Assembly: GCA_964590215.1 (NCBI GenBank)
Contig: CAZPYZ010000001.1
Location: 1-34,269 of the forward strand
Reading direction: 5' to 3'
From: an uncultured Dehalococcoidia bacterium
Lineage (GTDB): Bacteria > Chloroflexota > Dehalococcoidia > SHYD01
DNA length: 34,269 nucleotides
In this document: positions 1,330-4,969 of the stretch, one piece after another
How positions within the stretch are numbered: the first letter of the stretch is position 1
How the letters are laid out: each line of letters begins with the position of its first letter
The notes under the pieces: generated by a model
Told to the model about the DNA's origin: nothing
The model's database searches: none
Seen by the model: the letters and a program-made list of their open reading frames with translations, nothing else
Position numbers and translations under genes: made by a program

Positions 1330-1728
1330 TCAGGCCATGACGTCGGCGGCCGCCTTACAGCACTCGTCGTCTTGCTCGGGTGTGCCCCCACTAACACCGA
1401 CGGCACCGATCACCGCGACCTTCTCCTCGATGGGCAGGCCTCCCCCCACGGCCATGACCCGTCCTTGAGTTGAAGCTACTAGGCTGGTGAACCAACTCTC
1501 TTGGGCCATGGCGGTAAGCTGGCTGGTCGGCTGCTGGAACTGCGCGGCGGTGTAGGCCTTGTTGATAGCAACGTCCAGGCTCAAGGGGCGCGCCTTGTCC
1601 ATCCGCCCCACTGCAATCAGGCGACCACCCTCATCGACAACCGCGGCTGTAACCGCTATGCCGAGATCCTCCGCCTTGGCGTGGGCCGCCTCCACCATCT
1701 TCAGGGCTTTGTCCACCGGGATCGGCAT
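1330..1728 (-). CDS. GlcG/HbpS-like heme-binding protein (DUF336 family)
   Basis: This is the C-terminal 132 aa of the long minus ORF 1330..3315. It starts at ATG 1728-1726 with GGAGG upstream. Sequence is MPIPVDKALKMVEAAHAKAEDLGIAVTAAVVDEGGRLIAVGRMD...GGGLPI...IGAVGVSGGTPEQDDECC, typical of the family. The rest of the long ORF is antisense to amtB and is spurious. Confidence 0.8.
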   Translation of the reverse strand: MPIPVDKALKMVEAAHAKAEDLGIAVTAAVVDEGGRLIAVGRMDKARPLSLDVAINKAYTAAQFQQPTSQLTAMAQESWFTSLVASTQGRVMAVGGGLPIEEKVAVIGAVGVSGGTPEQDDECCKAAADVMA

Positions 1729-1856
1729 AGGAACCTCCTCCTCGCTGTCAGTTACGCACGGCTGCGAGTATAAGGCGCACCTGGGCATGGAGCAACGCGT
1801 CTTGCGTCGGGGCAGGTAGGCCGATAAGACGTTCGCGTCCTTCCAGGAGAGCGTCT

Positions 1857-1894
1857 GTAACGGAGCTGTAATCGAGGCGTAACAAGTTTGAAAC
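1857..1894 (+). promoter_or_regulatory. array of four pentamer direct repeats at 11-bp period (GTAAC-n6-GTAAT-n6-GTAAC-n6-GAAAC), candidate winged-helix regulator site upstream of amtB
   Basis: Read directly: GTAAC 1857-1861, GTAAT 1868-1872, GTAAC 1879-1883, GAAAC 1890-1894. The array ends 114 nt upstream of the amtB ATG. Confidence 0.5.
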
Positions 1895-2007
1895 AAACTC
1901 GCCTTACCTTTCGACATAAGGGCGCGGGCTGCCGTGCCCCAGTCTCTCAGTGCTCCCCGTAGCCTGAGCGCACCAAGGAGGCTCTCGGGGGAGGGAAAGG
2001 ATAGGAC

Positions 2008-3273
2008 ATGCCTGGGATCGACACGGGCGATACTGCATGGGTGTTGGCGTCTTCGGCTTTGGTCATGTTGATGACACCAGCGCTTGGGTTCTTTTATGGG
2101 GGGCTGGTTCGGGGGAAGAACGTCCTGGCCACCATCATGCAGAGCTTCTTCATCCTCGCGCTTATCAGCGTGCAGTGGGTGCTGTGGGGGTATAGCCTGG
2201 CCTTCGGGCCGGACATCGGTGGCGGTCTCATTGGAAGCCTGGAGTGGGTGGGCCTTGTCGGGGTTGGTGCAGAGCCCAACGCCGCGTATGCCGCCACGAT
2301 CCCCCACCAGGCCTTTGCCATCTTCCAGATGATGTTCGCGGTGATCACGCCTGCCCTCATTACCGGCGCCTTCGCCGAACGGAAACGGTTCAGGTCCTTT
2401 ATCCTCTTCACCCTGCTCTGGGCCACCCTGGTCTACGATCCCATTGCCCACTGGGTGTGGAGCTGCGGGGCGGTGGACGCAGCCGGCGTCTGCACCAGCC
2501 CCGGCTGGTTGCGGGCCCTTGGCGCGCTCGACTTCGCCGGCGGTACCGTGGTGCATATCAGTTCCGGTGTCTCCGCGCTGGTCGCCGCCTTCGTCCTGGG
2601 GCCCCGCCTGGGCTTTGGCCGGGAGGAGATGCAGTACGACGATGCCCGGATGGTAGTGCTGGGCGCGGCCCTTCTCTGGTTCGGGTGGTTCGGCTTCAAT
2701 GCTGGCAGCGCGGTGGCCTCCGGCGCGCTGGCCACCTCGGCTTTCCTGGTCACGAACACCGCCACCGGCATGGCGGCCCTCACCTGGATGACGGTGAGCT
2801 GGATCCACAAGGGGAGCCCGAGCGTCATCGGAGCTGCGGCGGGTGCCGTCGCCGGCCTGGTGGCTATCACCCCCGCGTCGGGCTTTGTCGACGCTCGTGC
2901 CGCGATTCTCATCGGCCTCGGCGCTGGGGTCTTTTGCTACCTCGGGGTGGAGCTGAAGAACCGGCTGCGAGTCGACGACGCTCTGGACGTCTGGGGCGTC
3001 CATGGGGTCGGCGGAACCTGGGGCGCTTTGGCGACCGGCCTGTTTGCCACCACCGCCGTTAACGCCGCCGGTGCGAACGGACTCTTCTTCGGCAATCCGG
3101 GCCAGTTCCTCATCCAGTTGCTGGCAGTGGCAGTGACCTGGGTCTATGCCGGCGTCATGACCTTCATCATCCTGAAAGTCGTGGAGGCTCTCATGGGTCT
3201 GCGGGTGCCCGAAGAGCAGGAGGTCACGGGCCTGGACATCGCTCAGCACGGCGAGCCAGCTTACCGGCTGTAG
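2008..3273 (+). CDS. amtB: ammonium transporter (Amt family)
   Basis: 421 aa. Contains DTAWVLASSALVMLMTPALGFFYGGLVR, FAGGTVVHISSG, LLWFGWFGFNAGS, DVWGVHGVGGTWGAL and GLDIAQHGE, all classic Amt motifs. SD GGGAGGGAAAGGA lies upstream. Confidence 0.95.
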   Translation: MPGIDTGDTAWVLASSALVMLMTPALGFFYGGLVRGKNVLATIMQSFFILALISVQWVLWGYSLAFGPDIGGGLIGSLEWVGLVGVGAEPNAAYAATIPHQAFAIFQMMFAVITPALITGAFAERKRFRSFILFTLLWATLVYDPIAHWVWSCGAVDAAGVCTSPGWLRALGALDFAGGTVVHISSGVSALVAAFVLGPRLGFGREEMQYDDARMVVLGAALLWFGWFGFNAGSAVASGALATSAFLVTNTATGMAALTWMTVSWIHKGSPSVIGAAAGAVAGLVAITPASGFVDARAAILIGLGAGVFCYLGVELKNRLRVDDALDVWGVHGVGGTWGALATGLFATTAVNAAGANGLFFGNPGQFLIQLLAVAVTWVYAGVMTFIILKVVEALMGLRVPEEQEVTGLDIAQHGEPAYRL

Positions 3274-3286
3274 CGGCCTCCAACAT

Positions 3287-3324
3287 TTAACATGCAGTTC
3301 ACTCACGCGTAACATGGTCGTAAC
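3287..3324 (+). promoter_or_regulatory. second array of four nTnAC pentamers at 11-bp period (TTAAC-n6-TTCAC-n6-GTAAC-n6-GTAAC)
   Basis: TTAAC 3287-3291, TTCAC 3298-3302, GTAAC 3309-3313, GTAAC 3320-3324. It begins 14 nt after the amtB stop and ends 56 nt upstream of the micro-ORF ATG at 3380. Period and orientation match the array at 1857-1894. Confidence 0.4.
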
Positions 3325-3379
3325 ATTCTGGCTTTAGCCTGACACTCAGTTAGTCTAAGAACTAATCAGGAGGAGCGTA

Positions 3380-3460
3380 ATGGATATCGGTCTCGTCGCT
3401 AGTCTGATTGCATTCGGTGGCCTGGTAGCCAGTTGGGTGACGCTTCCAGAGAAGCGCTAG
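3380..3460 (+). CDS. 26-aa hydrophobic micro-protein (single predicted TM helix), not in the ORF track
   Basis: The ATG at 3380 is preceded by AGGAGGAG (3368-3375). Translation is MDIGLVASLIAFGGLVASWVTLPEKR, with stop TAG at 3458-3460. An intrinsic terminator follows about 20 nt downstream. Confidence 0.55.
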   Translation: MDIGLVASLIAFGGLVASWVTLPEKR

Positions 3461-3481
3461 GTTCGTCAGCCGGAAACAGCC

Positions 3482-3510
3482 AGGCCCCTCCTAGTGAGGG
3501 GCCTGTTCTT
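3482..3510 (+). terminator. intrinsic terminator after the micro-ORF / amtB unit
   Basis: AGGCCCCTC (3482-3490), loop ctagt, GAGGGGCCT (3496-3504): a perfect 9-bp GC-rich stem, followed by GTTCTT. Confidence 0.7.
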
Positions 3511-3524
3511 ATGCCCAAAGGGCG

Positions 3525-3530
3525 TATAAT
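3525..3530 (+). promoter_or_regulatory. candidate -10 box (TATAAT) for the receiver-like gene / gap unit
   Basis: A perfect TATAAT at 3525-3530 sits 36 nt upstream of ATG 3566 and just after the terminator. I saw no convincing -35. Confidence 0.3.
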
Positions 3531-3565
3531 CAGCCCCGGTGATTTCGCTCCCAGGGGCATGTCGC

Positions 3566-3919
3566 ATGGTTGGGACCATCCTGGTCTACGCTGACGATCT
3601 GCTGAGCGGGGTTCAGGTCCGGGATACAGCAGAAAAGCTCGGCTACTCCGCCAGCACCGTGGCCTCCCTCGAGCCGCTCATCGATAAGCTGGCGTCCTCC
3701 CCCCAGATCCTCTTGGTGGACTTTGCAGCCCGCCCGGATTGGCCCGCCATCGTGGCGGCAGCCAGAGAGCAGGGCACGCCTCTCGTCGCCTTCGGCAATC
3801 ACATGGACCTGTCTAGCCGAGAACAAGCCCTTTCCGCAGGCGTCGATGCGGTCGTGGCCAGCTCACTAATAGCCACGGATCTTCGGGGAGTAATCAGGAA
3901 GTATGGCCGGGGGGAATGA
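3566..3919 (+). CDS. stand-alone CheY-like receiver-fold protein (atypical; no output domain)
   Basis: MVGTILVYADDLLSG...QILLVDFAARPDW...PLVAFGNH...GVDAVVASS shows the alternating beta/alpha pattern of a receiver domain. It has an acidic pair (DD) and a candidate acceptor Asp (LLVD), but I see no conserved Lys after beta5. I preferred ATG 3566 over GTG 3539 because AGGGG lies 8 nt upstream. Confidence 0.45.
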   Translation: MVGTILVYADDLLSGVQVRDTAEKLGYSASTVASLEPLIDKLASSPQILLVDFAARPDWPAIVAAAREQGTPLVAFGNHMDLSSREQALSAGVDAVVASSLIATDLRGVIRKYGRGE

Positions 3920-3955
3920 GGCGCCGGTCTCACTCCCCAGGCCAAGGAGGCCTTC

Positions 3956-4969
3956 ATGGCAACTCGGATCGGCATTAACGGCTTCGGCCGCATCGGCCGG
4001 CAGGTCCTGCGTAGCATCATGGAAAACCACCAGGATGCACTGGAGGTCGTGGCAGTTAATGACCTCACCGATACCCGCACCAACGCCCACCTCTTCAAGT
4101 ACGACTCGAGCTATGGCGCCTACCCGGGCACGGTGGAGGCCCGTGAGGATGGCATGACCATCGACCGCCAGATGATCAAGGTCTTCGCGCAGCGAGACCC
4201 AGCTCAGATCCCTTGGGGCGGCGTCGGCGCGGACATCGTCGTCGAGTCCACGGGTGTGTTCACTGATGCCAAAAAGGCGTCAGCGCACCTCCAGGGCGGC
4301 GCCCGCAAGGTCATCATCTCCGCTCCCGCGCGCAACGAGGACATCACTCTCGTACTGGGCGTAAACGAGGAGCGCTACGACCCCCGTAACCACCACGTCG
4401 TGTCCAACGCCTCCTGCACCACCAACTGCATCGCTCCCATTGTGAAAGTGCTCCATGACACCTTCCGGATGTCCAGGGGGTTAATGGCAACGGTGCACTC
4501 GTACACCAACGACCAGAGGATCCTGGATCAGTTTCACGAGGACCTGCGACGAGCCCGTTCCGCGGCGATGAGCATCATTCCCACCAGCACCGGCGCAGCC
4601 CGCGCCGTGACCCTGGTTATCCCGGAGCTGCAGGGCAAGATCCACGGCATCGCCTACCGGGTGCCCACCCCGACGGTTTCCGTAGTGGACTTCGTGGCGG
4701 ACGTGGAGCGGGACGTGGATATCGACGCGGTGAACGACGCCTATCGGGAAGCGGCGGCTAAGTCCTTGAAGAGCATCCTCGAGGTCTGTGAGGAGGAGTT
4801 GGTCAGTATGGACTTCAAGGGCAACCCCCACAGCGCCATCGTCGACTCGCCCAGCACCATGGTCGTCGACAAGCGCATGGTGAAGGTGGTCGGCTGGTAC
4901 GACAACGAATGGGGATACTCCTGCCGGGTAGGGGATCTGGCCGCGTTTATGGCGAAGCAGGGGTTTTAG
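3956..4969 (+). CDS. gap: type I glyceraldehyde-3-phosphate dehydrogenase
   Basis: 337 aa. Contains [20 protein letters not shown] and [18 protein letters not shown] lies upstream. Confidence 0.97.

Follow-up and report, generated by a model that had tools for sequence, protein, structure and literature searches.

A conserved single-helix micro-protein family encoded beside amtB in Dehalococcoidia and other Chloroflexota: a candidate partner of the Amt ammonium channel

Small proteins that act on transporters

Few membrane proteins have been studied as thoroughly as the Amt/Mep/Rh channels. To our knowledge, the soluble PII protein GlnK is the only accepted protein partner of a bacterial Amt, and sP36 is the only small-protein Amt partner that has been described. 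A small transporter subunit of another kind is KdpF (PF09604), a component of the KdpFABC K+ pump with a presumed stabilising role in the complex. sP36 is a 61-aa protein of Methanosarcina mazei that is part of the nitrogen regulon, binds AmtB1 and GlnK1, and acts on AmtB1 and on the interplay between the two; it is soluble and moves from cytoplasm to membrane upon an ammonium upshift (10.1101/2023.09.04.555848; PMC10714827). AcrZ, MgtS, MgtR and MntS are bacterial single-helix micro-proteins that modulate transporters, and a 2023 review of such modulators covers SgrT, MgtS, MntS, AcrZ, MgtR and others, with only PII proteins given for Amt (PMC10710835). With respect to regulation, the GlnR boxes of actinobacteria have the forms gTnAc-n6-GaAAc-n6-GtnAC-n6-GAAAc and t/gTAAC-n6-Gc/aAAC (PMC10704036).

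The window (the whole 34,269-nt stretch of DNA analysed here) comes from G000, a Dehalococcoidia bin. G000 is a fragmented MAG of 861 contigs that is 88.75% complete and 5.81% contaminated. As far as we know, nitrogen regulation in Dehalococcoidia is essentially uncharacterised. A search of the literature found no description of the small ORF (sORF) family presented below, nor of a Chloroflexi GlnR regulon. What appears to be new is an operon-encoded single-helix micro-protein tied to a channel family (Amt) for which none was previously known, and the sORF family ranks as a strong candidate for a hitherto undescribed partner of the Amt channel.

The micro-ORF and its family

The micro-protein gene occupies positions 3380 to 3460 of the forward strand (26 codons and a stop; ATG at 3380, TAG at 3458-3460) and encodes MDIGLVASLIAFGGLVASWVTLPEKR. 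It lies downstream of amtB, which encodes a 421-aa ammonium transporter (2008-3273, forward strand; PF00909, E-value: 6.5e-124) and had been correctly named as the neighbour in the first-pass annotation of this DNA. The strong Shine-Dalgarno sequence that the same annotation had placed just upstream of the start codon is AGGAGGAG (3368-3375, forward strand), with a spacing of 4 nt. Its description of the product as one hydrophobic helix plus a charged tail also holds. Residues 3-22 form an unbroken hydrophobic run, consistent with a single TM helix in the ~25-30 aa size class, and the tail is basic. The terminator reported as a 9-bp stem at 3482-3510 is essentially right. As measured, the hairpin (3481-3505; CAGGCCCCTC-CTAGT-GAGGGGCCTG) has 10 pairs, a 5-nt loop and a free energy of -20.4 kcal/mol, and is followed by TTCTTAT. 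This intrinsic-terminator-like element (3481-3512, forward strand) is probably the end of the amtB-sORF transcript. Among 36 relatives, strong hairpins are found 3' of the sORF in ~10, and a strict hairpin-plus-T-tract rule is satisfied in four. Between the terminator and gap (GAPDH, 3956-4969) lies an ORF of 126 aa that begins with GTG (3539-3919, forward strand). This ORF has no Pfam match and, judged by eye, looks receiver-domain-like.

AmtB was searched in 60 relatives, and the flanks of the amtB loci were inspected for sORFs. In 12 of the 30 amtB loci, a like ORF lies 3' of amtB in the same orientation, and two of these 12 loci carry a tandem pair. A peptide HMM built from 14 members identified ~40 members across 301 genomes of the class. 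All 36 members that were delimited have an ATG start and a GGAGG-type Shine-Dalgarno sequence 5-9 nt upstream, so that the arrangement is not unique to one strain; ORF, ATG, Shine-Dalgarno sequence and motif are conserved in dozens of related genomes. F12, W19 and P23 (F-x6-W-x3-P) are invariant in three alignments from different sources, and L15, V20 and L22 are nearly invariant in the same alignments. The codon-position entropy of the family is 1.18 at the first position, 0.81 at the second and 1.56 at the third (third > first > second). A comparison of synonymous and non-synonymous change, which the first-pass annotation had called for, gave a pS of 0.67-0.88 (near saturation) versus a pN of 0.1-0.3, with a dN/dS of 0.06-0.65 in informative close pairs. 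By these measures the family is under purifying selection, and the sORF at 3380-3460 is almost certainly a real translated gene.

Tandem duplication of the micro-ORF is recurrent (L003, L014, L137 and L163; also G419:C215, G637:C344 and G387:C135). The copies are 100-500 nt apart, each with its own Shine-Dalgarno sequence, and the dN/dS between copies is ~0.6.

In a database of 5.8 billion proteins, 130 called family members fall within 22-70 aa, none with a Pfam domain. These proteins are unnamed, labelled "hypothetical" or evidently mis-named, and originate from Dehalococcoidia, Chloroflexi and Roseiflexaceae MAGs. When 1.84 billion cluster representatives were searched exhaustively with the profile, 235 family clusters emerged, nearly all of them stand-alone proteins of 28-65 aa. 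Overall, the family ranges from 25 to 65 aa. The shortest called members have 28-29 aa; the 26-aa protein of the window and the 25-aa protein of L004 are not in protein databases, and members below 28 aa are presumably absent because common gene callers ignore ORFs of less than 90 nt. The result is a systematic annotation gap, in which the shortest members are missing and the called ones carry no informative name. Profile searches of Pfam, NCBIfam and PDB with family members found no matching family, in agreement with the earlier description of the micro-protein as unannotated.

The longer profile matches comprise gene calls that are too long, an artefact of a repeat, and a HAD-phosphatase in which the helix serves as the anchor at the N-terminus. 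HMM matches in ORFs of ~555 aa were rejected as family members, because they represent a TM helix (...VAFVSFVALLAFWLLDPDR...) of 7TM-HD hydrolase-like proteins. These false positives (G128:C9:8822-8893, G205:C1:32439-32507 and ~7 similar places) have E-values of 1e-4 to 1e-1 and are a hazard when mining the family.

With one model at E<=1e-4, 68 of 401 Chloroflexota genomes are positive versus 0 of 301 Actinomycetota genomes, and no such ORF was found in ~70 loci of other phyla that encode a 50-68% identical AmtB. Named AmtB relatives belong to Chloroflexota or Dehalococcoidia MAGs.

The 26-aa peptide has one TM helix, conserved residues F12, L15, W19, L22 and P23, and a short tail of four residues (PEKR), of which only the P and one basic residue are kept across the family. 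Family-wide, the net charge is ~+2 over the ten residues past P23 and ~0 at the N-terminal end, which is neutral or acidic (consensus M-x-x-E). Applied to this charge distribution, the positive-inside rule predicts an N-out/C-in topology. The periodicity of conservation along the helix is strongest at 90-100 degrees, a value equalled in 134 of 5000 shuffles. This period sets A8, F12, L15, W19, L22 and P23 on a single helix face. Such one-sided conservation is suggestive only, but would fit a specific contact between helices in the cytoplasmic half of the bilayer rather than a generic anchor.

Gene neighbourhood and putative operators of the GlnR-box type

Approximately 32 of the 38 class-level sORF members adjoin Amt or PII genes. 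The linked Amts span two clades with a mutual identity of only 30-34%. The commonest order in the class is amtB-glnK-sORF, with gaps of -9 to ~150 nt (for example L007, L011, L014, L018, L020, L021, L122-L127 and L129). The first-pass annotation had proposed that the micro-protein occupies the slot in which glnK normally follows amtB. The usual order contradicts this: the sORF is a third operon member and does not fill the glnK slot, and in the lineage of the window glnK is simply missing from the bins. Four loci, those of the window, G001 (which has a tandem pair of sORFs), G025 and G032, lack glnK and have the sORF directly after amtB. The AmtB proteins of G001, G025 and G032 are the closest to the window AmtB (83%, 81% and 77% identity, respectively). 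As stated in the first-pass annotation, there is no PII gene in the 34-kb window. No canonical PII gene was found anywhere in bins G000, G001, G025 and G032, although this claim is weakened because the MAGs are incomplete (64-89%).

The sole PII-like gene in G000 is a weak match (C85:4776-5141; L142:2277-2642, minus strand) that encodes 121 aa (PF00543, 33.6 bits). It overlaps the stop codon of a gene for a 561-aa multi-pass membrane protein, and looks like a regulator of another transporter rather than GlnK. Similarly weak PII-like matches are present in G005 and G007.

Most genomes of the same family, which have glnK, encode an AmtB with just 57-59% identity to that of the window; the AmtBs that are 77-83% identical to the window AmtB include those of genomes placed in other families (G025 and G032). 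Two explanations suggest themselves, namely paralogy among Amt lineages and lateral transfer of an amtB-sORF module that lacks PII, and the pattern could also stem from bin contamination (5.8%).

A sub-type of the sORF with a K/R/H-rich tail goes with the distant Amt clade (30-34% identical to the window AmtB) and is located either upstream or downstream of its Amt gene (L089, L108, L117 and L119). In a phylum-level sample, the sORF directly follows Amt in 11 of 20 members. Gene orders elsewhere in the phylum, taken from independent gene calls with precomputed Pfam labels, include amt-sORF-glnA-glnA-gltB, amt-sORF-glnA and amt-sORF-sORF-glnA. A Roseiflexaceae MAG has the order amt-sORF-Na/H exchanger-amt, and the L163 cluster comprises gltB parts, an OmpR-family regulator, two sORFs, two amt genes, PII and GSIII. 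Exceptions to the linkage are the large group f94 and several others, which lie near unrelated genes. G000 itself encodes a second paralogue (C104:6360-6473; L141:2361-2474), MDLALALSLLAFGYLISSWLALPDADEQTEARCTNRR (start MDLALALSLLAFGYLISSWLALPDADEQ...), in which F-x6-W-x3-P is kept. This paralogue has an acidic tail and a weak Shine-Dalgarno sequence; the genes on either side of it are on the opposite strand, and there is no amt in the vicinity.

Two operator-like arrays are present in the window. The first (GTAAC-n6-GTAAT-n6-GTAAC-n6-GAAAC; 1857-1894, forward strand) lies 5' of amtB and consists of four half-sites of the GlnR-box type with an 11-bp period. The second (TTAAC-n6-TTCAC-n6-GTAAC-n6-GTAAC; 3287-3324, forward strand) is located 56-93 nt 5' of the sORF ATG and overlaps a sigma-70-like match, TTAACA-17-TAACAT. 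When both strands of the 34-kb window were scanned for three half-sites with an 11-bp period, only the amtB and sORF sites were found (shuffle mean: 0.26). The motif had been defined from these two sites before scanning, which makes its strength within the window partly circular, and therefore only its recurrence elsewhere counts as independent evidence.

Such recurrence was observed both in the rest of the genome and in relatives. Besides those of amtB and the sORF, the strongest arrays genome-wide (four repeats, <=3 mismatches) lie 5' of a glnA-glnA pair (G000:C201:1649-1686), a molybdopterin oxidoreductase gene (G000:C178:720-780) whose product may be an assimilatory nitrate reductase, a cNMP-binding protein gene (G000:C114:3853-3891) and one further gene (G000:C229:6451-6488). 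A weaker array with 5 mismatches (G000:C617:276-313) precedes an ABC-transporter gene. In relatives, the array is found 5' of amtB where the sORF is co-operonic, and 80-112 nt 5' of the sORF ATG where the sORF stands apart (L089, L116, L118, L121, L125 and L126). Even sORFs that are not beside amt (L116, L118 and L121) have an array ~100 nt upstream, and the arrays in relatives are nearly always on the coding strand. Twenty sampled loci of Chloroflexota outside Dehalococcoidia yielded no GTAAC operator, and this operator form therefore appears to be class-level rather than phylum-level.

The arrays at amtB, the sORF and glnA fit the published GlnR consensus, with its a-b-a-b layout and 11-bp period (PMC10704036). 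They differ in setting, as the consensus is actinobacterial and the host here is a Chloroflexota MAG; the sORF family is absent from the Actinomycetota genomes searched. Because a GlnR-box-type array is common to amtB, the sORF and glnA, the sORF is likely to be a member of a nitrogen regulon of the GlnR type, and the operator suggests that Dehalococcoidia possess a GlnR-like regulon for nitrogen. There is no terminator between amtB and the sORF, and the sORF is therefore probably transcribed by read-through from amtB, and probably also from its own regulated promoter.

A possible regulator is encoded next to the sORF in L163. This OmpR-family protein (L163:3178-3840) matches Trans_reg_C and no receiver model. 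Its best homologue in G000 (C786:10-675; locus L169; 45% identity) also matches Trans_reg_C and has a weak match to GlnR_1st (23.2 bits, below the Pfam cut-off of 27). The C786/L163 regulator is a GlnR-like candidate for the master regulator of Chloroflexota nitrogen metabolism.

Proposed role and comparison with described systems

The first-pass annotation had speculated that the peptide is a small accessory or regulatory subunit of the Amt channel, and by linkage this is the best-supported hypothesis. Guilt by association is consistent over two Amt clades, several operon architectures and the operator. The explanation preferred as a whole, a nitrogen-regulon N-out/C-in micro-protein that partners Amt within the membrane, has about an even chance of being correct. 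For the narrower claim of direct partnership with Amt the evidence is linkage, and here the balance is equally level.

The mechanism envisaged is the following. The sORF would be co-transcribed with amtB, with one hairpin after both genes, and a second promoter would be under the same GlnR-box-type operator as amtB and glnA. Nitrogen limitation would induce the peptide. The conserved face formed by A8, F12, L15, W19, L22 and P23 would pack against the Amt trimer inside the membrane, and the peptide, in the role of an accessory subunit, would stabilise the channel or tune it, or else act in this way on its docking with GlnK where GlnK is present. Such an action would be analogous to that of KdpF, AcrZ and MgtS on their transporters. 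Some observations speak against an Amt partner. The linkage is not universal (f94, other groups and the C104 paralogue), and no sORF-Amt fusion was found among ~160 loci or among the best 150 of the 235 cluster representatives. Furthermore, most Amt-bearing genomes of the class (~85%) have no sORF, which is therefore dispensable for Amt function.

Many members are equally near glnA, and another nitrogen-related target is therefore possible. The peptide would then be a nitrogen-regulated membrane micro-protein that acts on glutamine synthetase or a membrane sensor kinase, or tethers some other nitrogen-signalling protein, and its adjacency to amt would reflect shared regulon membership only. 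Many members do lie between amt and glnA-glnA-gltB, with gaps of ~200 nt on each side. One member is 5' of an amidotransferase gene and two glutamine synthetase genes with no amt nearby (L116), another is 5' of a NadE-like gene (L118), and every stand-alone copy has its own operator. Small proteins that regulate glutamine synthetase are known in other lineages (sP26, IF7/IF17). However, Amt is by far the commonest neighbour, in two divergent clades and with some gaps of 4 nt or overlaps, and glutamine synthetase is a cytoplasmic enzyme, while conservation in the peptide falls on a membrane-embedded helix face and the tail is short and variable. A target other than Amt is on the whole rather unlikely. 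Still less credence is given to the idea that the peptide replaces the missing GlnK and gates the Amt pore in PII-less lineages, as the amtB-sORF pairs in G000, G001, G025 and G032, without a canonical PII in the bin, might imply. Those four bins are just 64-89% complete, the sORF and glnK occur together in one operon in most genomes, and G056 (98% complete) has Amt without either PII or the sORF. In addition, the 4-residue tail PEKR cannot mimic the T-loop or sense 2-oxoglutarate/ATP.

The remaining explanations deny the peptide a function of its own. A short ORF with a strong Shine-Dalgarno sequence, often found 5' of glnA or another amt, could be a translated regulatory leader or uORF for downstream genes such as glnA, with a functionless product. 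This is very improbable. In the window and in many relatives the sORF is the last gene ahead of a terminator hairpin, and therefore nothing is located downstream for it to control; moreover, selection acts on its amino acids and the invariant motif lies on one helix face, unlike in leader peptides. A permissive Rfam scan of positions 1700-4100 gave no match to any riboswitch or leader model, those for the glutamine and Downstream-peptide motifs among them, and its single match was a spurious miRNA model on the terminator hairpin. A chance intergenic ORF, or a generic hydrophobic segment without a role, might be suspected from the size of just 26 codons and from the readiness with which hydrophobic helices give spurious HMM matches, as with the 7TM-HD helix. 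Conservation, the Shine-Dalgarno sequence, selection, synteny and specificity controls effectively refute this explanation, which is the least probable of all.

Partnership with Amt, the preferred reading, can also be put in a stronger form. The peptide would be an integral-membrane Amt subunit and, throughout the phylum, the third component of the AmtB-GlnK system. From its place in the bilayer it would control how active the channel is or how GlnK docks, and it would provide PII-independent control of uptake where PII has been lost. This extended version is unlikely to hold in full. If partnership with Amt is true, a phylum-wide nitrogen-regulated membrane micro-protein adds a new layer to the control of ammonium uptake.

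Among the described systems, GlnK resembles the sORF product in being encoded directly downstream of amtB and in its nitrogen co-regulation. GlnK, however, is a soluble sensor of 112 aa that forms trimers (PF00543), whereas the peptide has no match to the PF00543 (PII domain) profile and its gene is normally located after glnK. KdpF is similar in size (~26-30 aa), in its single TM helix and in being encoded in the operon of the transporter that it serves. The first-pass annotation had seen a loose resemblance to KdpF in the C-terminal residues, but this kinship was rejected: none of 14 members matches PF09604 (Potass_KdpF) at E<=10, no NCBIfam KdpF model was matched, and the conserved motif is F-x6-W-x3-P and not an ending of the KdpF type. 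KdpF also differs in that its partner is a P-type ATPase rather than an Amt channel, and in that kdpF is first in its operon whereas the sORF is usually last. No kdp gene adjoins the sORF in any locus examined, the neighbours being amtB, glnK and glnA.

AcrZ, MgtS, MgtR and MntS share with the sORF product a length of <50 aa, one TM helix and co-regulation with a target, on which they act by helix-helix contact. They have no sequence similarity to it, and none of them targets an Amt/Mep/Rh channel. The sORF product has the traits of operon-encoded transporter micro-proteins (<50 aa, one TM helix, linkage to a transporter and a shared operator), and this class of the AcrZ/MgtS/KdpF kind is functional and not a homology family. 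The closest functional analogue is sP36, a nitrogen-regulon small protein tied to Amt. sP36 is archaeal and soluble, and is set apart by its description, length and character from a bacterial integral TM helix of 25-45 aa. If the sORF product is indeed an Amt partner, it would be the bacterial counterpart to this archaeal protein.
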